Shown here piece by piece: positions 187-62,740 of a stretch of 64,000 nt of DNA. How positions within the stretch are numbered: position 1 is the stretch's first letter; every line of letters begins with the position of its first letter. The translations under genes were made by a program, and so were the position numbers. This DNA comes from Actinomycetota bacterium. GTDB lineage: Bacteria > Actinomycetota > Aquicultoria > UBA3085 > Oleimmundimicrobiaceae. The stretch covers positions 1,050 to 65,049 of the forward strand of contig DSBK01000016.1 in assembly GCA_011046085.1 (NCBI GenBank), written 5' to 3'. The notes under the pieces were generated by a model. It had not been told where the DNA came from, ran no database searches, and was given only the letters and a program-made list of their open reading frames with translations.

Positions 187-283
187 TGAGATTGCCACGG
201 CTTCGCCTCGCAATGACTTGGATGGATTGCCACGCCTCGCAAAATTGCTACCGTTGCGGGGCGTGGCAATCTCGAGCTTACTT
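187..283. repeat. Hairpin-forming intergenic repeat. A 12-bp perfect stem gattgccacgcc/ggcgtggcaatc (225-236/260-271) flanks an inner cgcaa/ttgcg stem; it also carries the cctcgcaatgac module
   Basis: Direct reading. Modules cgtggcaatctc and cctcgcaatgac recur at 4402/4441, 47820 and 62733. Confidence 0.6.
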
Positions 284-1506: not shown

Positions 1507-3070
1507 AATAAAATTTAAGATTGTTTTATTCATGGCTTTTTTGTTTTTGTTTGCCGTAAACAGTGATGTTTTGGCGGCCGGCAGGTTTATCGTTCCCGCC
1601 AATACCACTTTTGAAGGAGGCATAGGAGCGGGAGTTGTGCCAATTGAAGTCGATGGCCAACTCAAAGGCAACATTTTTGGATTTCCCGAAGAAGTAATCG
1701 TTCGCGGAGGTGTCGATGGAGATATAGGTGTTGATGCTACCGTGTATCTTAAACCAGGCGCGGTGGTTAACGGCGACATCTCTGCCGGTAAGCTCGTCAG
1801 AGAACTGGGGTCCGAATTTAATGGGAAGTTTACTTCTCGCTCCGAACCGTCTTCTCCGCCTTTTTATTTTATAATCCTGGAGCTCGTTCCCATTCTTATT
1901 TTTATTGGTTTGAGTTTCATCATACAGCGGTTTTTCTTTAATAGATTTGAAACGGTGGTTGAAGGCTGTAAAGGTAGAGGGGTGCTTTTATTTGGGTTGG
2001 GTTTTATGTCGATGATTCTCTGGATTGGTTTTTTGGCTATTATCAACGGGTTTTTTACCTTGTTTTTTTCAAGTGGTCAGGGTAGTGACCTTGGTTTGGA
2101 AACAGGGGGTTTCTCCGTGCCGACCATTATACTGTATTTTCTTGCGGCATCACCTCTCATCATATCCCTGGCAGTTTTCAGTAGGGTAGTTGGAAGGTTT
2201 GTTTTTAGCCGTTTTGTTGACTCGATTTATGCTCAAGTTATATTAGGTTCTTTTTTGATATTGTGGTTGATTTTTCTTAGTTCTTTCTTAAGTATTGTTG
2301 TTTTGCCTGTTTTGGCTATTCCGGCTTTAACTATATTGGGCTCTATTGTGGTAACGCGATACGGTTCTTTTTCGCTCGGGAGGCCCAACAAAAAGCAACA
2401 TTTTTATCTTGTGGCAACCATTTTATTTATGGTTTTTATGATTATAATCCCTGCCTCTTTATATATTTATGTTCCTCAAGTATACGGGTTAGCCTCTCCG
2501 AATTATAGAGCAGGTCAACCATTTGAGATTAATAATTTGTCTTTTAAGAAAGACTACATTGAGATAGTTTTTTTAGAAGGGGTTGGTGTGCCCATTATGT
2601 TGGACGATAATTTGCAAGGGACGGTTGTTTTAGGCAAGGGTTATTTTAACTTTGGTCTGCCTGAGTCAAAAGAGGATGAGCGCATATCCTTTGTGATAGA
2701 TAGGTGCGCTGTTTTAGTTTCAGATAAAGATAACGGTAGCTCTCTTAGCGGAAGACCTGCATCTATTTCAAAAGAGAAAGTTGACGAGGCCATGGTTAGT
2801 TTTGATTTGATGAGCAGGGATGTTATTAGAGTGCCTGCAAATATATTGGGTGTGCAATTTTTTGATTTATACAGGGTGGTAGATGTTGAAAGATTGAGAG
2901 AAACAAAGGGTTTAAATTCTTTAATTTATATGATTAGTCATGGACAAAAGATTGTCTACAAAGAAGAAAAAACTAAGCTTAATGGAAAAGAAACAACAGC
3001 GATCACTCTTTTTGCGGACGAAGGATTTTATGTCTTCCTTACGCCTGATTGCATTGGTCCTTTTGAATAA
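1487..3070 (+). CDS. Polytopic membrane protein: signal peptide, N-terminal bactofilin-like Gly/Val/Asp beta-helix repeats, then about 8 TM helices and a roughly 200-aa C-terminal domain
   Basis: Signal peptide KIVLFMAFLFLFAVNSDVLAAG; repeats VIVRGGVDGDIGVDATVYLKPGAVVNGDISAG; hydrophobic blocks 1850-2500. Start at ATG 1487 overlaps the anti-sigma gene by 20 nt. Confidence 0.5.
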   Translation: MVTRAGRIKFKIVLFMAFLFLFAVNSDVLAAGRFIVPANTTFEGGIGAGVVPIEVDGQLKGNIFGFPEEVIVRGGVDGDIGVDATVYLKPGAVVNGDISAGKLVRELGSEFNGKFTSRSEPSSPPFYFIILELVPILIFIGLSFIIQRFFFNRFETVVEGCKGRGVLLFGLGFMSMILWIGFLAIINGFFTLFFSSGQGSDLGLETGGFSVPTIILYFLAASPLIISLAVFSRVVGRFVFSRFVDSIYAQVILGSFLILWLIFLSSFLSIVVLPVLAIPALTILGSIVVTRYGSFSLGRPNKKQHFYLVATILFMVFMIIIPASLYIYVPQVYGLASPNYRAGQPFEINNLSFKKDYIEIVFLEGVGVPIMLDDNLQGTVVLGKGYFNFGLPESKEDERISFVIDRCAVLVSDKDNGSSLSGRPASISKEKVDEAMVSFDLMSRDVIRVPANILGVQFFDLYRVVDVERLRETKGLNSLIYMISHGQKIVYKEEKTKLNGKETTAITLFADEGFYVFLTPDCIGPFE

Positions 3071-3125
3071 ACTTTTTAAAAATCTCAGATTTATGCCCTA
3101 TTGTTTTTTCGAGAGCCCCATCTTT

Positions 3126-3190
3126 TTGAATAAATTTCCAATTTATTGAATATTTATTGACAAATATTCAAGTTTTATGTATATTATGAC
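3126..3190 (+). promoter_or_regulatory. arg operon promoter (-35 TTGACA 3157-3162, 17-nt spacer, -10 TATATT 3180-3185) overlapped by three ARG-box-like ArgR operators
   Basis: Candidate ARG boxes TTGAATAAATTTCCAATT, TTGAATATTTATTGACAA and TGACAAATATTCAAG match the TNTGAATWWWWATTCANW consensus; argR lies in the same cluster. Confidence 0.55.
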
Positions 3191-3228: not shown

Positions 3229-4272
3229 ATGATTAAGGTTGGAATAATAGGAGCATCTGGCTATACTGGCGCTGAGTTGATGCGGATGTTGATAAACCAT
3301 CCTGATGTGGAAATATCTTATGTGACCGCAAACAAATATGCGGGGCAAAAAGTTGCTTCCCTTTATCATAATTTTTATGGCATATGCGATCTTTTGTTTG
3401 AAAAATTTGACTTAGATACGGCAAAGAAAAATGCTGAAGTGTTCTTCGTTGCTCTCCCCCATGGAACGGCCATGGATGTTGTTCCCGATCTTTTAGGAGA
3501 TAACCGGAAGGTTATTGATCTAAGCGGCGACTTTCGTTTTTTTGAGAAAAGTGTTTATGAAAGTTGGTACAAGATGCCTCACAAATATCCTGAACTCCTT
3601 GGAAAAGCCGCTTATGGTCTTTGTGAGATGAATCGGGAAGAGATTAAGAAGTCTAATTTCATTTCCAATCCGGGTTGTTTTCCCACGGGGTCGGTTTTAG
3701 CGATAGCGCCTCTTTTGAAGAAAAATTTGATTTTTGGGGACGACATTGTGGTTGACGCTCTTACCGGTGTCTCTGGAGCCGGTCGCGGTGCTAAAGAAGG
3801 GACTCATTATTGTTCATGTGATGAAAATGTAAGCACATACAAAGTGGGAGGCATTCATCAGCATATTCCCGAGATGGAGCAGGAAATGGGTAAAATTTCC
3901 GGTAAAGAGGTAAAGCTCACTTTTGCTCCCCATCTTGCGTCCTTTTCAAGGGGTATTTACAGCACAATATATTCCAAGTTAAAAGAAGGTATTTTAACGG
4001 AAGAACTCTTAAAAGTCTATAATGATTTTTATAAAAACGATTATTTCGTTAAGGTTTTATCTAAAGGTATTTATCCTGAGGTTAAATCCGTTGCAGGCTC
4101 GAACTTTTGCCAAATTGGATTGGAGGTTGATAAGAGAACCAGCAGGGTGATCGTGGTTTCGGCAATCGATAATTTGGTTAAAGGGGCATCGGGCCAGGCA
4201 ATTCAAAATATGAATTTAATGTGTGGATTTGATGAGAAAGAAGGTTTAGAAGTAGTGGGACTTGTGCCTTAA
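3229..4272 (+). CDS. argC: N-acetyl-gamma-glutamyl-phosphate reductase
   Basis: N-terminal MIKVGIIGASGYTGAELMRML Rossmann motif; catalytic Cys region NPGCFPTG; RBS AAGGAG. Confidence 0.9.
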   Translation: MIKVGIIGASGYTGAELMRMLINHPDVEISYVTANKYAGQKVASLYHNFYGICDLLFEKFDLDTAKKNAEVFFVALPHGTAMDVVPDLLGDNRKVIDLSGDFRFFEKSVYESWYKMPHKYPELLGKAAYGLCEMNREEIKKSNFISNPGCFPTGSVLAIAPLLKKNLIFGDDIVVDALTGVSGAGRGAKEGTHYCSCDENVSTYKVGGIHQHIPEMEQEMGKISGKEVKLTFAPHLASFSRGIYSTIYSKLKEGILTEELLKVYNDFYKNDYFVKVLSKGIYPEVKSVAGSNFCQIGLEVDKRTSRVIVVSAIDNLVKGASGQAIQNMNLMCGFDEKEGLEVVGLVP

Positions 4273-4340
4273 AATAGTGAGGAGTGGGTAGAGGAATTCA
4301 GCCCTCAGTCGCCAGTCTTCAGGGAAACCAAAAATGTTTA

Positions 4341-4530
4341 GATTGGCTGGAAGCTGGAGACCAGACTGTTGAATTTCGTCATTGCGAGCGACCAAAGGGA
4401 GCGTGGCAATCCCTTTACCAGCGAGATTGCTTCGGTTTGACCTCGCAATGACGCTAAAATGTACTCCTGCCTGTCGGCAGACATGGCATTTTGGCTATTA
4501 TTCAACAGTCTCGAGACCGGAAGCTGGAGG
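4341..4530. repeat. Nested palindromic intergenic element of about 190 bp (MITE/BIME-like)
   Basis: Outer 12-bp perfect arms agactgttgaat (4363-4374) and attcaacagtct (4500-4511); inner 11-bp arms gtcattgcgag/ctcgcaatgac (4378-4388/4443-4453); core hairpin aaaggga-gcgtggcaa-tcccttt; plus the ctgcctgtcggcag hairpin and ggaagctggag repeats. Confidence 0.65.
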
Positions 4531-4548
4531 CTAATATTGGAGGAAATT

Positions 4549-5760
4549 ATGTCTAAGATGAAAATTATACAAGGAGGAGTAACCGCTCCCGCTAGCTTTA
4601 AGGCATCGGGGGTTTCGTGTGGAATAAAAGCAAGCGAAAAAAAAGATTTAGCAGTTATTCTTTCGGAGGTTCCGGCCACAACGTCCGCGGTTTTTACAAC
4701 CAACAAAATGGCTGCAGCCCCCGTGCGTTTTAGCCGTTGCAATGCGCGAAATGGAATTTGCCGGGCAGTGGTCATAAATAGCGGAAATGCCAACGCTTGC
4801 ACTGGTTTAAAAGGAGAAGAAGATGCTTTCGAGATGATCGATAAAACGGCGGAGGCATTAAGCATCCATCCTCAAGATGTAATCGTTGCATCCACAGGTG
4901 TAATTGGTGTTCCTCTTCCAATGGATAAGGTTGAGAAGGGAATAGTCGATGCCATCTCACTTTTAAGTAAAGAGGGGCATACAGATGCGGCTGAGGCCAT
5001 CATGACAACCGATACCTACTCAAAAGAGATTGCTGTTCAGTTTGAATTTCGGGGAAAGACCGTAACAATTGGGGGAATGGCGAAGGGTTCGGGCATGATT
5101 GCGCCAAATATGGCCACAATGCTTGCCTTTTTGACTACCGATATAAATATTTGCCGCACTTGTTTAAGGGCTAGCTTAACTGAAGCTGTTAATAAATCTT
5201 TCAACATGATTACCGTTGATGGGGAAACGAGTACCAATGATATGGTTGCCGTTTTAGCAAGCGGTAAGGCAGGAAATGAAAAACTTATTCTTGGGGACGA
5301 CGATTATAATGTTTTTCAAAAAGCCTTAAATTACGTGGCAACCGAACTTGCAAAAATGATAGTAAAAGATGGTGAGGGGACAACAAAATTCATTGAGATT
5401 GATATTAAAGGGGCCAAAACGGGCAAGGATGCCAAAAAGGTGGCGATGGTGATTGCCAACTCAAATTTGGTTAAGACCGCTTTCTTTGGCGAAGATGCAA
5501 ATTGGGGCAGGATAATCTCCGCATTGGGGCACTCGGGGACCGAGATTGATCCCGAAACGGTAGATATTTACTTTGATGACGTTCAAATTGTAAAAAACAG
5601 CATCGCCCTTTCTTTTGATGAAAACAAGGTAAATGAGATTCTTAAAAACGATGAGATAAGGGTGATTGTGGACTTAAACATTGGTGATGGTAAGGCAAAA
5701 GTTTGGACATGCGATTTAAGTTACGATTATGTAAAGATAAATGCTTCTTATCGGACTTAG
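4549..5760 (+). CDS. argJ: Bifunctional glutamate N-acetyltransferase / amino-acid acetyltransferase
   Basis: ArgJ family motifs (ATMLAFLTTD, TNDM); RBS GGAGG 5 nt upstream of ATG 4549. The ORF-track start at 4459 lies in the repeat. Confidence 0.9.
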   Translation: MSKMKIIQGGVTAPASFKASGVSCGIKASEKKDLAVILSEVPATTSAVFTTNKMAAAPVRFSRCNARNGICRAVVINSGNANACTGLKGEEDAFEMIDKTAEALSIHPQDVIVASTGVIGVPLPMDKVEKGIVDAISLLSKEGHTDAAEAIMTTDTYSKEIAVQFEFRGKTVTIGGMAKGSGMIAPNMATMLAFLTTDINICRTCLRASLTEAVNKSFNMITVDGETSTNDMVAVLASGKAGNEKLILGDDDYNVFQKALNYVATELAKMIVKDGEGTTKFIEIDIKGAKTGKDAKKVAMVIANSNLVKTAFFGEDANWGRIISALGHSGTEIDPETVDIYFDDVQIVKNSIALSFDENKVNEILKNDEIRVIVDLNIGDGKAKVWTCDLSYDYVKINASYRT

Positions 5761-6093
5761 GTGATTTTAATGAAGATAAATTTGTCAAAAACTTGGAAAT
5801 TGATTTTTTTAATCATTTTATTTTTGGAGCTAAGTTTTTTAGTTGGCCTTATTTTCGTCAAAGACAGTTCAATTGCCACTAAAATTGTAAGTATTTTGGT
5901 TTGCGCCGCTTATTTTATTTATATTATTAGGCGGCCCGCGCCGGATGTGTTGTGGGGTATTATTTCTTTGCCATTCGGTCTTTTAATTTTTTATAAAGCT
6001 GCGGGTTTTTCTCTTAGTTTGACGGTTTTATTATCTGTTGGCCTTGCTTTTTTAACCTTAATTTTATTACCTTGGATTCTTTACCGAGGGTAG
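5761..6093 (+). CDS. Small membrane protein of about 110 aa with 3 TM helices, function unknown, inserted between argJ and argB
   Basis: Open frame with GTG 5761 / ATG 5770 starts; strongly hydrophobic; tightly packed between the argJ stop and the argB RBS. Confidence 0.4.
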   Translation: MILMKINLSKTWKLIFLIILFLELSFLVGLIFVKDSSIATKIVSILVCAAYFIYIIRRPAPDVLWGIISLPFGLLIFYKAAGFSLSLTVLLSVGLAFLTLILLPWILYRG

Positions 6094-9255: not shown

Positions 9256-9684
9256 ATGAAAGATAAAAAAGAAAGACAGGTTATTATAAAAGAGCTTGTT
9301 AGAAAAAAAAGGATAAGAACTCAAGATGAAATAATGTTTGAGTTAAAGAAAAATGGTTGCGAAACGACCCAGGCAACAATATCGAGGGATATATCTGATT
9401 TAAATCTCGATAAAAATGAAGAAGGTTGCTATGTTTTAGCAGAAGACATATATCTTAGGAAGATGATAAAGGGGTTTGTAAACAGCATTGTTGCGGCCAA
9501 CAATCTCATATTGATTAAATGTTCTGCGGGTTCGGCTCCCGGGGTCGCCGCGGCCATAGATAAGATAGAGTGGAAGGAAATTTTAGGGACAATAGCTGGC
9601 GATGATACCATTTTAATGGTTACCTCTGATGAAAAATCCGCAAAGTTAATTGAGAGTAAATTAGCGAAGCTAAAAGCGGTTTAG
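9256..9684 (+). CDS. argR: Arginine repressor ArgR/AhrC
   Basis: Winged-helix N-terminus (TQATISRDISDLNL) and C-terminal GTIAGDDTILM arginine-binding motif. Confidence 0.85.
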   Translation: MKDKKERQVIIKELVRKKRIRTQDEIMFELKKNGCETTQATISRDISDLNLDKNEEGCYVLAEDIYLRKMIKGFVNSIVAANNLILIKCSAGSAPGVAAAIDKIEWKEILGTIAGDDTILMVTSDEKSAKLIESKLAKLKAV

Positions 9685-10936: not shown

Positions 10937-11070
10937 TGCATATAGCAGATGGCATATAGTAGATGGCTGAGAGAAAATAGAGTCTGGAGTGTGGGGTATG
11001 GACTATGGTAAAACCAGCAATCTGGCCAACAAACTACCGACTTCCCACCAAGAGACTACCGACTGATTAG
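10937..11070. repeat. Intergenic element: 14-bp tandem direct repeat gcatatagYagatg x2 (10938-10965) plus the actaccgact module pair (11031-11049; 11050-11070)
   Basis: aagagactaccgactgatt is identical to 7069-7086. Confidence 0.5.
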
Positions 11071-12583: not shown

Positions 12584-14302
12584 ATGGATAATCAAGACAT
12601 TGCTTTCATACTCAATGAAATTGGAGAAATGCTTGAAATTCAAGGTGAACATCCTTTTAGATCACGAGCTTACCACCGCGCGGCATATGCAATTCAAGGA
12701 CTAGCAGAGGACATAAACGATATTTATAAAGAAAATAATCTTGAAAAAATTCCTGGGGTTGGAAAGGGTATAGCCGAGAGAATAGTTGAGTTGCTTAAAA
12801 CGGGAAAGCTTGCTTATTACGAAGAGTTACAAGAGCATGTGCCTCCAGGTCTTTTGCAATTAATTGGCATTCAAAGCGTGGGTCCAAAAAAAGCCAAGCT
12901 TTTTTATGACAAACTTGGGATCGCTGACGTTGAAGAACTTCTTAAAGCTGCGGATGAACATAGGTTAAAGGATTTGCCTGGCATGGGGCCAAAGGCGGAA
13001 GAAAATGTTCGAGCTGGAGTACTGGAGTTTCAACACTTAAGAGAGAGAATACTTTTAAGCGAAGCTTATCCCCTGGCGGAAAACATAATCAGGCAGCTTG
13101 ATGAGTTTGATTTTATCCTCAGAGTAAGCGCGGCCGGAAGTTTAAGACGAATGAAGGAGACCATCGGAGATATCGATATTTTGGCGGCCAGCAATGAATT
13201 TTCTAAGACGATGGATGTTTTCTGCAATCTCTCAGAGGTGTCTCGTGTGCTTGCGAAAGGTGAGACCAAAAGCAGTGTTATCACGCAAATTGGTCTTAAA
13301 GTCGATGTAAGAGTTGTTTCACCCGAGCAATTTGGCGCCGCTCTTCAATATTTTACCGGCTCAAAAGAACACAATATTCATCTTAGAGAAATAGCAAAAA
13401 AGAAGGGGTTAAAAGTAAATGAGTACGGTGTTTTTGAAGTCAAAACGGAAAAAAGAATGGGAGGAGCAGCTGAGGAGGAGGTCTACAATTTGCTTGGAAT
13501 GCAATGGGTTTACCCTGTGTTAAGGGAAAACAAGGGAGAAATCGAGGCGGCAACCCTTAATAATCTTCCAAACATTGTTAATTTATCGGATATAAAAGGG
13601 GATCTTCATGTTCACTCAAATTGGAGTGATGGATTGAACAGGATTAAAGATGTTGCCAGGGCGGCAAAAGAGCGGGGTTATGAGTATGTGGCTATAAGCG
13701 ATCACGCTGAGAAGTTAAAGATTGCGGGAGGATTGACGGTTGATGATTACAGACGTCAATGGGAAGAGATTGAAGTTGCAAATAAAGAGATTGGCGGGGT
13801 AACCATCTTGCGAGGAACGGAAGTTAATATTGACAACGAGGGAAATGTAGATTTTGAAGATGATTTTTTAAGGGAGTTTGATGTTGTAACAGCATCAATT
13901 CATGGTGGATTTTCTCAGAATAAAGAACAGTTAACCAGGCGCATTTTGAGAGCAATTTATAATAAACACGTAAATGTTATCGGACATCCTACTGGCCGAA
14001 TTTTAGGCAAGAGGCCACCGTATTTGCTGGACCTGAAAGCAATATTTAAAGCGGCGGCGGAAACAGGAACTTTTCTTGAGCTCAATTCTTTTCCTGACAG
14101 ATTAGATTTAAAAGACGATTATCTTAAAGAAGCTAAGGATGTGGGGGTAAAATTTGTCATAAATACAGACGCTCACAGCATAGGACAACTTCGGTATATA
14201 TTTTACGGATTAGCAACGGCTCAGCGGGGCTGGCTAGAAGCTGGGGATGTAATAAATACGTATTCTTTAGAAGAAATGATGAAGATGCTGGGTAAGGAAT
14301 AA
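12584..14302 (+). CDS. polX: DNA polymerase X family protein with a C-terminal PHP phosphoesterase domain
   Basis: Pol-beta-like HhH N-terminus, PHP motifs HVHSNWSDG, ISDHA, NTDAH; ATG 12584 preferred. Confidence 0.8.
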   Translation: MDNQDIAFILNEIGEMLEIQGEHPFRSRAYHRAAYAIQGLAEDINDIYKENNLEKIPGVGKGIAERIVELLKTGKLAYYEELQEHVPPGLLQLIGIQSVGPKKAKLFYDKLGIADVEELLKAADEHRLKDLPGMGPKAEENVRAGVLEFQHLRERILLSEAYPLAENIIRQLDEFDFILRVSAAGSLRRMKETIGDIDILAASNEFSKTMDVFCNLSEVSRVLAKGETKSSVITQIGLKVDVRVVSPEQFGAALQYFTGSKEHNIHLREIAKKKGLKVNEYGVFEVKTEKRMGGAAEEEVYNLLGMQWVYPVLRENKGEIEAATLNNLPNIVNLSDIKGDLHVHSNWSDGLNRIKDVARAAKERGYEYVAISDHAEKLKIAGGLTVDDYRRQWEEIEVANKEIGGVTILRGTEVNIDNEGNVDFEDDFLREFDVVTASIHGGFSQNKEQLTRRILRAIYNKHVNVIGHPTGRILGKRPPYLLDLKAIFKAAAETGTFLELNSFPDRLDLKDDYLKEAKDVGVKFVINTDAHSIGQLRYIFYGLATAQRGWLEAGDVINTYSLEEMMKMLGKE

Positions 14303-14499
14303 GGAACAAGGATTAAGTTGTACAGGTTAAGAGGTTAATTCTTATAGCTTAAAACTTATTGCTTATGGTAGAGCTATAAACGATGAACAATGAACTAAAA
14401 AATTTCCAACCAAACGATCGATGGAGCATAGAGCAGAGGGCACAGAGAAAATTCAGATTGAAAATTGCAAAATGTAAATTTTAAATTGGAAAGTGGAGA

Positions 14500-40225: not shown

Positions 40226-40244
40226 TAGTTAAAAGGGTAAAGAC

Positions 40245-40580
40245 GGGATTAAGGAGTAAGGAGAGTAACCGTAGTGTTTATTATGAGTATCTCACCCCAG
40301 TCTTATTGGAGTGATTTTCGGATACCGATCTGACGAAAGAAATCGCCAGACCTGTCTGCCGACAGGCAGTGATGGTAAAGACATCATTGCGAGGCTTCAG
40401 CCGAAGCAATCTTGCTGGTAAGTATAGCCTCTGTATTAGAAAGAGATCACCACGCTCACTTCATTCGCTCGTGATGACGATGAAGAAGCGAGGATATCAC
40501 TACGGGTTAAAGCTCTTGTGATGGCAAAAATAGGGTCATTGCGAGCCCCGATATTCATCGGGGCGCGACAATCTTATAAG
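40245..40580. repeat. Chain of intergenic hairpin repeats (GGAGTAAGG unit, ctgtctgccgacaggcag, cattgcgagg...gcaatc, gccccgat-attc-atcggggc)
   Basis: Modules shared with 187-470, 4341-4530, 47721-47875 and 62667-62740. Confidence 0.6.
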
Positions 40581-40633
40581 CGGTAGATGATGGAGTAAAG
40601 AATTTAAGGTTAACAAAGGATACAGTTTTGGAA

Positions 40634-47703: not shown

Positions 47704-47720
47704 ATATTGGCTGGTAAAAT

Positions 47721-47875
47721 TAAGGAGTAAGGATTAAGGAGTAAGGATTAAGGAGTAAGGAGAGTAACTGTAGGGGTCATTGACGTGCCTACCGGCAGGC
47801 AGGCGAGGAGCGATAGCGACGTGGCAATCTCAAAGAATTGGAAAGTGCAAAATGTAAATCCAGGGAAGAATATTT
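47721..47875. repeat. Tandem 14-bp repeat taaggagtaaggat x3 followed by ggggtcattgacg, ccggcaggcaggc, cgtggcaatctc, attggaaagtg and tgcaaaatgtaaat modules
   Basis: Direct reading; modules shared with 40245-40274, 262-273, 14459-14495. Confidence 0.6.
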
Positions 47876-62645: not shown

Positions 62646-62666
62646 GCAAGTTGTCGGCTCCCAGCC

Positions 62667-62740
62667 ATCAGTCTCCAGCTTAACTGGAAATTAAGTATGC
62701 AAAACTAAAAAGAAGTCATTGCGAGCGAAGCGCGGCAATC
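62667..62740. repeat. Copy of the intergenic repeat (cagtctccagct, gtcattgcgagcgaagcgcggcaatc)
   Basis: Shares modules with 4378-4411 and 4506-4527. Confidence 0.5.

Follow-up and report, generated by a model that had tools for sequence, protein, structure and literature searches.

The 64,000-nt stretch analyzed here (the window; contig DSBK01000016.1 of the Actinomycetota assembly GCA_011046085.1) contains an arginine operon with the gene order argC, argJ, a small open reading frame (ORF), argB, argD, argF, argR, argG, and argH, in which the spacer between argC and argJ is 276 nt long. On comparing this spacer with those of related loci and with similar repeats in other genomes, the segment 4363-4512 was read as a non-coding, non-autonomous mobile element, similar to miniature inverted-repeat transposable elements (MITEs), that was inserted into the argC-argJ spacer of this lineage; we place the probability of this reading at about 0.72. 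The element is 150 bp long, carries terminal inverted repeats (TIRs) of 12-13 nt, and is flanked by a 6-bp duplication, GAGACC. A previous reading of the sequence alone had described a nested palindrome of approximately 190 bp covering 4341-4530. This extent was too wide, as the element itself ends at 4363 and 4512 and the GAGACC copies occupy 4357-4362 and 4513-4518; a duplicated target site, for which that reading had suggested a search, was thereby found on both sides.

All of the parts named in the sequence-only reading were recovered. The outer arms AGACTGTTGAAT and ATTCAACAGTCT (4363-4374 and 4500-4511) are complementary at 12 of 12 positions, and the hairpin AAAGGGA/TCCCTTT (4394-4400 and 4410-4416), the hairpin CTGCC-TGTC-GGCAG (4467-4480), and the 11-nt direct repeat GGAAGCTGGAG (4349-4359 and 4519-4529) are all present. 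The inner arms CGTCATTGCGAG and CTCGCAATGACG were also located (4377-4388 and 4442-4453), with 12 of 12 positions paired instead of the 11 claimed. An additional 9-bp stem, GCTAAAATG / CATTTTGGC (4453-4461 and 4487-4495), encloses the CTGCC-TGTC-GGCAG hairpin, hereafter hairpin B. In the case of coding capacity, the 150 bp are crossed only by an upstream extension of argJ and by an antisense ORF overlapping argJ. These two mechanically called ORFs, a 433-aa extended argJ (4459-5760) and a 175-aa ORF on the minus strand (4338-4865), are artefacts of the repeat, and the relatives support the argJ start at ATG 4549.

The orthologous argC-argJ spacer was compared in six related loci (L002, L004, L005, L006, L024, and L026; ArgJ 79-81% identical), and the element was missing from all six. 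The window, L002, L004, and L026 have both flanks in common, AGCCCTCAG..AAACCAAAAAYGTTTAGATTGGCTG on the left and TGGAGGAAATTATG on the right, and between them the three relatives contain only GACAGCTGGTGATGAGCAAGA, approximately 20 nt, whereas the window contains approximately 170 nt. The spacers of L005, L006, and L024 are short (102-110 nt), unrelated in sequence, and without the element. In L025, whose contig stops 207 nt upstream of argJ, the comparison covered only the part upstream of that gene. Here, the same left-flank block was found, followed by a 14-nt tandem, TGATAGCCAGTGAC / TGACAGCTGGTGGC, at the position where the window has GGAAGCTGGAGACC ... GGAAGCTGGAGGCT.

When 4363-4512 and one GAGACC were excised in silico, a 14-nt tandem like that of L025 was restored. 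The 11-nt repeat GGAAGCTGGAG was also considered as the target duplication and was rejected; as its copies are offset from the TIRs by 3 nt on the left and 7 nt on the right, they do not form a simple target duplication. Most plausibly, the 11-nt repeat is what remains of a 14-nt tandem that was already in place and was split by the insertion, with GAGACC as the actual target duplication, because the excision restores the tandem, the 11-nt copies lie 3 and 7 nt off the ends, other 7-nt and 14-nt tandems occur in the spacers of this genome, and the ends of the element are sharply conserved among its relatives.

Tandem repeats of heptanucleotide and 14-nt units were observed in several intergenic spacers of the window (47719-47762, 10938-10967, 14293-14317, 4299-4322, and 62662-62678), the types being TAAGGAG in six copies, GCATATAGCAGATG in two copies, and CAGNNNN in 7-nt phase. 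Similar tracts are present in L002, L005, L006, L018, and L019, and the element landed in one such tract. These tandems recall the heptamers of the short tandemly repeated repetitive sequences (STRRs) of cyanobacteria. The spacer also contains a block of approximately 54 nt at 4296-4349, AGCCCTCAGTCGCCAGTCTTCAGGGAAACCAAAAATGTTTAGATTGGCTG, that is conserved in L002 and L026 and partly in L025, despite an ArgJ identity of only 80%. Positions 1-130 of L025 carry a decaying pair of inverted hairpin modules in the argC-argJ spacer that closely resembles the interior of the element described here. The pair is located upstream of the conserved block, at a distance of approximately 60 nt, and not downstream of it; it lacks a terminal repeat on its right side and counts as an independent hit on the argC-argJ spacer. 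Moreover, the argB-argD gap of L002 and L025 holds single modules of this type; the corresponding gap in the window is only 71 nt.

The termini of the element were searched as the pattern AGACTGTTGAAT-N(110-140)-ATTCAACAGTCT in metagenomes of the Joint Genome Institute (JGI) and in an N(108-138) version in GTDB species genomes. The scans matched 13 JGI metagenome stretches and 4 GTDB species genome contigs, whose record titles are Acidimicrobiales, Endomicrobiaceae, Cloacimonadota, and Candidatus Bathyarchaeia. Once identical sequences were dropped, 14 distinct elements of 134-161 bp remained, all of them intergenic, on contigs with GC contents of 0.32-0.66. Their neighboring genes are unrelated to arginine, such as hisB and hisH on either side of the copy in L011 and prfB and a transketolase gene on either side of that in L015, and some members lie between divergent genes. 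The window segment 27364-28556 was tried as an empty hisB-hisH site for L011 and rejected, as the encoded proteins are unrelated. Two copies were found on separate contigs of one sample (L018 and L019), and L020 carries two 157-bp copies that are 98% identical, 2 kb apart, and each beside CTAG. Both L020 copies have the same orientation and bracket a single 601-aa ORF (3488-5675 of the locus, an Acidimicrobiales metagenome-assembled genome (MAG) with a GC content of 0.66), an arrangement that looks like a composite transposon. One element with identical flanks recurs in L010, L013, L021, and L023, that is, in two JGI contigs and in MAGs of two phyla (Endomicrobiaceae and Cloacimonadota), which points to an error of binning or to a mobile or viral contig that they have in common.

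The positions beside the searched arms were also conserved. Of the 28 ends, 20 have G at position -1, 22 have A at +13, and 20 have A at +14; from -2 outward, the base composition was random. Because these positions were not part of the search pattern and randomness begins at -2, the consensus end was set to GAGACTGTTGAATAA with a sharp boundary. Exact repeats within 2 nt of the ends averaged 4.0 nt and reached at least 5 nt in 8 of 15 cases, for example CTTAG, CCCTCTT, GTGAGA, TCTAAG, GCTCC, TACAC, and CTAG. In mismatched flank pairs, used as the null, the mean was 1.0 nt and the maximum was 4, which was reached in 3 of 208 pairs. Of the options that the sequence-only reading had offered, the mobile miniature element is supported by the absence from the spacer of relatives, the TIRs with flanking duplications, the unrelated intergenic sites, and the near-identical copies within one MAG.

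The interior of the element resembles the CGTC-tagged class of repetitive extragenic palindromic (REP) sequences. These REPs carry an unpaired CGTC tag (TGTC often; CCTC allowed) and a short 3' tail with the consensus CCA, and the first two positions of their stem are complementary A-T residues (Di Nocera, De Gregorio and Rocco 2013, BMC Genomics 14:522, PMC3733652). They are predominantly arranged as head-to-head dimers, often heterodimers, and have no dedicated transposase, and dimers lying within larger palindromes were noted in Halothiobacillus and Anabaena; the four published families (CGTC-1 to CGTC-4) have stems of 8-9 bp and loops of 4-5 nt (PMC3733652). In 11 of the 14 distinct elements, each arm holds a module of the form (C/T/A)GTC-AT-xyz-loop-z'y'x'-AT-C, with the two modules head-to-head and with loops that usually read GAG...(C)GA. 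An exact 5-nt complement was found in 15 of 21 arms, against approximately 7% expected by chance within a 70-nt span. Seven versions of the stem were recognized (ATTGC, ATTCT, ATCGC, ATCCT, ATTTC, ATCCC, and ATCTC); as these vary around an unchanging GTC, AT, and closing C, the stem is maintained by compensatory change. Among 20 module-bearing arms, the tag was TGTC in 11, CGTC in 4, and AGTC in 5.

In the argC-argJ element, the modules A1 and A2 both begin with CGTC, and solo copies in the window begin with AGTC, CATC, or GGTC. The inner arms of the sequence-only reading are the tags and stems of these two inverted modules, and the AAAGGGA/TCCCTTT hairpin is an alternative structure within the A1 loop. 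All modules read AT-xyz...z'y'x'-AT, in line with the A-T start of the published stems, and the stem is followed by a conserved C and a variable sequence (CCCT, CTCG, CTAG, or CTCA). A1 and A2 have five Watson-Crick pairs followed by a 14-20-nt loop opening with GAG, which departs from the published stem and loop sizes. Because the tag, the AT stem, and the dimer arrangement agree but the stem and loop sizes do not, the comparison fits core modules that would be divergent relatives of the CGTC-tagged superfamily, not members of CGTC-1 to CGTC-4. Accordingly, the likeness to bacterial interspersed mosaic elements (BIMEs) that had been drawn from the sequence holds in kind, the core being a head-to-head REP-type dimer that matches the CGTC-tagged class and not the REPs of E. 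coli.

The layers of the element also recur separately. The window contains 6 occurrences of CGTCATTGCGAG at up to one mismatch, where 0.08 would be expected, and the strict module pattern gave 7 matches against 1.6 expected in 200 simulated sequences of the same dinucleotide frequencies, 2 of the 7 looking like chance. At least nine modules are present in the 64 kb, and all convincing copies are intergenic. Further copies of hairpin B lie at 445-458 and 40356-40369, and the separate A and B copies are all in the larger intergenic gaps. Thus, the claim that related elements exist in the window was true of the inner modules and did not extend to the outer arms, which are unique in it. As the layers recur alone elsewhere, the nested symmetry reflects palindromic units inside one another and not an arrangement peculiar to the arg operon. 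The 402-nt intergenic segment 40226-40627 is a mosaic of a B hairpin, an A/A' heterodimer, an extra ATCAC...GTGAT hairpin, and an A module containing CCCCGAT..ATCGGGG, in which the A/A' stems ATTGC and ATCAC form G-T wobbles when mutually paired. At 181-290, three A-type modules are clustered inside the mechanical ORF 75-383, which is therefore probably spurious, followed by a tract of B-type hairpins at 436-470 (CCTGTCTGCCGACAGGCACGGCGGCAGGCAGGG).

This recurrence bears on how the element was assembled. In an alternative that we regard as unlikely, the 150 bp were never mobile as one unit; a short TIR-bounded palindrome or REP dimer arrived first and later layers entered the single-stranded loop in place. 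Each layer is indeed seen without the others. Head-to-head dimers without TIRs occur in L009, in L025, and at 40382-40479 of the window; in these and in the TIR-bearing elements, the partner stems often differ (for example, ATTCT with ATCCT and ATTGC with ATCAC). L009 holds three tight, textbook CGTC heterodimers without TIRs beside its TIR-bearing copy, the only ones with the published stem and loop sizes. L007, L010, and L020 carry pairs of TIRs around interiors that are not of the REP type. B-like or other small G+C-rich hairpins appear as inserts within REP loops, as in L018, which differs from L011 by the insert CCCCTGCCTGCCGGTAGGCAGGGG, in L005, L014, and L019, and at 40537 of the window; REP dimers within palindromes are also reported in other species (PMC3733652). 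Arrival in a single step was given the higher weight, because no intermediate was seen at the site, where the relatives lack all layers, and because the B-A-A' interior already forms one unit at 40350-40480; moreover, the duplication flanks the outermost layer.

A transposase that could act on these termini was sought in the window and in the fetched loci. None was found among the window ORFs scanned, and a Y1 transposase was absent from the window and from every fetched locus except L012. In L012, an IS200-like Y1 transposase (434-865; Pfam Y1_Tnp, E = 1.4e-28) lies within 361-905 and is flanked on both sides by direct CCCGTCACTGAGCGAAGCGAAGGGACGGG hairpins, whose loops have GAGCGAAGCGAAG in common with many A modules. 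A link to IS200 or to REP-associated tyrosine transposases (RAYTs) was rejected and kept only as a lead, as the Y1 gene occurs in L012 alone and its CCCGTCACTGAGCGAAGCGAAGGGACGGG hairpins have a different architecture. L012 also contains a degraded DDE gene of IS66/Mutator type between the Y1 gene and its TIR element (2034-2169); this fragment was rejected as a partner because its far end has no matching terminus. The ends of the element may resemble those of IS903 (GGCTTTGTTGAATAA) and IS26 (GGCACTGTTGCAAA). A plasmid BLAST search returned no match for the element or for two family members with non-REP interiors, and a scan of viral contigs for the terminal pair gave 0 matches. In a literal-sequence literature search, CATTGCGAG, ACTGTTGAATAA, and AGACTGTTGAAT returned primers only or nothing. 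These specific termini were thus found neither in Rfam nor in that literature search. The element is of an ordinary type of genomic repeat, although its ends recur in very distant microbes.

Several observations weigh against the mobile-element reading. The fetched loci, plasmids, and viral contigs yielded no autonomous partner that carries these termini, and the outer termini occur only once in approximately 75 kb of the source contig (the window and a further 10 kb). As the nearest relatives are only approximately 80% identical in ArgJ, there is no exact empty site, and the flanks in this lineage are short tandem repeats, so that part of the flanking repetition is older than the insertion. 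The length of the duplication varies among members (3-7 nt exact, perhaps 9 with mismatches), which is unusual for a transposase with a fixed stagger. The A modules, with 5-bp stems and long GAG-starting loops, are unlike the four published CGTC families. As for the host range, the Endomicrobiaceae and Cloacimonadota matches are one and the same sequence, and the Bathyarchaeia label of L022 is a record title only, which its flanking genes (TrmB-like, NUDIX, PPDK_N, CsoR-like, and MnmA-type) neither confirm nor refute.

The segment 4341-4530 folds far better than shuffled sequence, and a check on both strands gave stable structures in each case. The RNA fold of the plus strand reached -72.1 kcal/mol (z = -4.0) and that of the minus strand -70.2 kcal/mol (z = -5.65), with 0 of 200 shuffles as good on either strand. 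The DNA fold of 4357-4518 gave z = -6.9, and no shuffle equalled it. The predicted fold of the element is a closed three-way junction, and the argJ Shine-Dalgarno sequence at 4540-4544 is unpaired in the centroid structure, so that the ribosome-binding site lies outside the fold. As the fold is self-contained and leaves the Shine-Dalgarno sequence unpaired, the argC/argJ operon would tolerate the element.

Such a stable fold could also belong to an RNA selected to act in cis between argC and argJ as a stabilizer, processing site, or attenuator, as the sequence-only reading had allowed. The position inside a co-directional operon means that it would be transcribed, the fold of -72 kcal/mol is very stable, RNA roles of such repeats have been discussed (PMC3733652), and family members likewise occupy the hisB-hisH and prfB-transketolase gene spacers. 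However, the element is missing from the same spacer in the six related loci examined, the family is found in unrelated contexts including the gaps between divergent genes, and both strands fold equally well. At the gathering score, Rfam gave no match for the window or for 13 related loci, and relaxing to E up to 10 gave only one chance snoRNA outside the element. Within 4150-4650, the sense strand has no intrinsic terminator, a hairpin followed by a U-tract being absent from it, and the sole terminator-like site is on the minus strand. A selected arg operon RNA was accordingly considered very improbable. Inside the element, the promoter scan gave just one weak sigma-70-like match, as many as chance would produce. 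A hammerhead-like reading of CUGAGG...CGAAG was rejected by eye, as the CUGANGA core is not preserved and GCGAG stands in the copies of the window.

In E. coli, REP and BIME elements can protect upstream mRNA. As the argC-argJ element lies within the operon, it is presumably co-transcribed with argC and argJ, and its effect is most likely neutral, or at most REP-like, impeding the 3'-5' decay of the mRNA segment upstream of it.

A protein-binding site was another option raised from the sequence, with ArgR as the candidate considered, since the sequences TTGAATAA / TTATTCAA of the outer arms look like ARG-box half-sites, TTGAATAA also occurs in the ARG-box-like operator upstream of argC (3126-3173), and the operon includes argR. 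Nevertheless, no 18-bp palindromic ARG box (core TGAATWWWWATTCA, up to 2 mismatches) lies inside 4341-4530, whereas matches under the same threshold were found upstream of argC at 3127 and 3147. The half-sites in the arms are separated by 125 nt, and the same termini adjoin non-arginine genes in many organisms. ArgR binding to the element was thus judged extremely unlikely, and the protein-binding option was not supported. At 3062-3190, the ARG-box-like palindromes TTGAATAAATTTCCAA, TTGAATATTTATTGACA, and TGACAAATATTCAAG overlap a good sigma-70-like promoter (TTGACA ... TATATT); the palindromes upstream of argC (approximately 3126-3190) are probably the ArgR operator of the operon. The argR gene lies at about 9256-9684. 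The small ORF between argJ and argB (5761-6093, approximately 107-110 aa) has no Pfam hit and was found at the same position in all relatives examined (L002, L005, L006, and L024-L026); it is an unannotated conserved member of the arg operon. Table 1 summarizes the features of the spacer and the separate copies in the window.

Table 1. Coordinates of the argC-argJ element, its flanks, and separate copies of its layers in the window.
Feature	Position	Strand	Basis or remark
argC (N-acetyl-gamma-glutamyl-phosphate reductase)	3229-4272	+	ORF, translation; Pfam Semialdhyde_dh on the identical gene in L001
Conserved left flank, AGCCCTCAG..GATTGGCTG, outside the insertion	4296-4349	+	alignment with L002, L004, L026, partly L025
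Left 11-nt repeat GGAAGCTGGAG	4349-4359	+	read as unit 1 of the split 14-nt tandem GGAAGCTGGAGACC / GGAAGCTGGAGGCT
Left target-site duplication GAGACC	4357-4362	.	exact 6-nt repeat abutting the left end, 1 nt off the right 12-mer
Left TIR AGACTGTTGAAT	4363-4374	+	family consensus GAGACTGTTGAATAA
REP module A1	4377-4411	+	CGTC tag, stem ATTGC 4381-4385 / GCAAT 4406-4410, tail C
REP module A2, head-to-head with A1	4425-4453	-	CGTC 4453-4450, stem ATTGC 4449-4445 / GCAAT 4430-4426
Side arm, 9-bp stem GCTAAAATG / CATTTTGGC around G+C-rich hairpin B	4453-4495	+	B = CTGCC-TGTC-GGCAG, 4467-4480
Right TIR ATTCAACAGTCT and terminal C	4500-4512	-	minus-strand reading is GAGACTGTTGAATAA
Right target-site duplication GAGACC	4513-4518	.	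exact match to the left copy
Right 11-nt repeat GGAAGCTGGAG	4519-4529	+	read as unit 2 of the split 14-nt tandem
argJ with Shine-Dalgarno GGAGG (4540-4544) and ATG 4549	4540-5760	+	right flank TGGAGGAAATTATG conserved in relatives
Solo A module AGTC-ATTGC...GCAAT-C	190-217	-	
Two partial A modules	224-280		
Interior paralogue without TIRs: B, 12 nt, A, CTGGTAAG, inverted A (stem ATCAC/GTGAT)	40350-40480	+	aligns with the whole interior of the element
A module	40385-40411		within the 40350-40480 paralogue
Inverted A module, compensated stem ATCAC/GTGAT	40445-40478	-	within the 40350-40480 paralogue
Solo A-like module, nested CCCCGAT..ATCGGGG hairpin in the loop	40537-40573	+	
Solo A module AGTC-ATTGC-GAGCGAAGCGCG-GCAAT-C	62715-62740	+	

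In the proposed course of events, the element would have landed in a short 14-nt tandem tract and duplicated GAGACC. Its outer layer, the 12-13-nt termini (GAGACTGTTGAATAA), would presumably be recognized by a transposase acting in trans. The second layer is a head-to-head dimer of REP-type hairpins of the CGTC class, each with a (C/T)GTC tag, an A-T stem start, and a short tail, and the third a small G+C-rich hairpin nested in one arm. Under this reading, the unusual length and structure of this spacer, in an arg operon that is compact elsewhere, are explained by selfish repeat DNA, which serves as a warning against annotating ORFs that overlap the element or an extended argJ start. It also links the CGTC-tagged REPs, which are mechanistically orphan, to conserved termini of 13-15 nt with target duplications in diverse uncultured lineages. 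More tentatively, and with odds that we put below even, the GAGACTGTTGAATAA termini may define an undescribed superfamily of miniature elements across phyla, including by its record title an archaeal MAG, that would be the usual carrier or landing pad of CGTC-type REP dimers. If so, an enzyme recognizing GAGACTGTTGAATAA could explain the movement of the whole CGTC REP class, making its mobility testable, and could also explain the nesting of palindromes, for example by insertion into single-stranded hairpin loops. The pattern of hairpins within hairpin loops is usable for models of repeat insertion.

Among known systems, the CGTC-tagged REPs, which include dRS3 of Neisseria and RPE-4 and RPE-6 of Rickettsia, share with the modules the CGTC/TGTC tag, the A-T stem start, perhaps a short 3' tail, an extragenic location, head-to-head and often hetero-dimeric pairing, the lack of a linked transposase, and in some cases a position inside larger palindromes. 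The modules described here differ from them in several respects: beyond a perfect stem of just 5 bp, they have an internal loop, GAG...(C)GA, and long loops (11-60 nt) in which further hairpins are often nested; their tail is C(T/C)N instead of CCA; and their hosts, an Actinobacteria-labelled MAG and other uncultured lineages, do not belong to the five phyla of PMC3733652. The Neisseria intergenic mosaic elements (NIMEs), in which dRS3 (CGTC-1) is interleaved with other repeats, are also intergenic mosaics comparable to 181-290 and 40226-40627 of the window, although their sequences and host are different and the comparison draws on one sentence of PMC3733652 and on general knowledge.

Similar to MITEs, the family members are 134-161 bp long, non-coding, and intergenic, with conserved TIRs and short flanking direct repeats, and they show presence or absence among relatives as well as near-identical copies in one genome (L020). 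Unlike MITEs, they have no parent insertion sequence with these ends among the sequences searched, the duplication length is not uniform, and the interior is usually a REP dimer, not a deleted insertion sequence. The BIMEs of E. coli and the REPINs (doublets of inverted REPs) of Pseudomonas are functional analogues, in which two inverted REP hairpins and a spacer can likewise fold into one long hairpin, and which are likewise located within operons between co-directional genes and dispersed in the genome. However, those systems carry a GTAG tag and a linked RAYT, whereas a CGTC/TGTC tag was found here and no RAYT was seen in the window. Moreover, the linker motifs and the sites for integration host factor and gyrase are specific to the E. 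coli BIMEs, and REPINs are without the outer terminal repeats and target duplication that bound the argC-argJ element.

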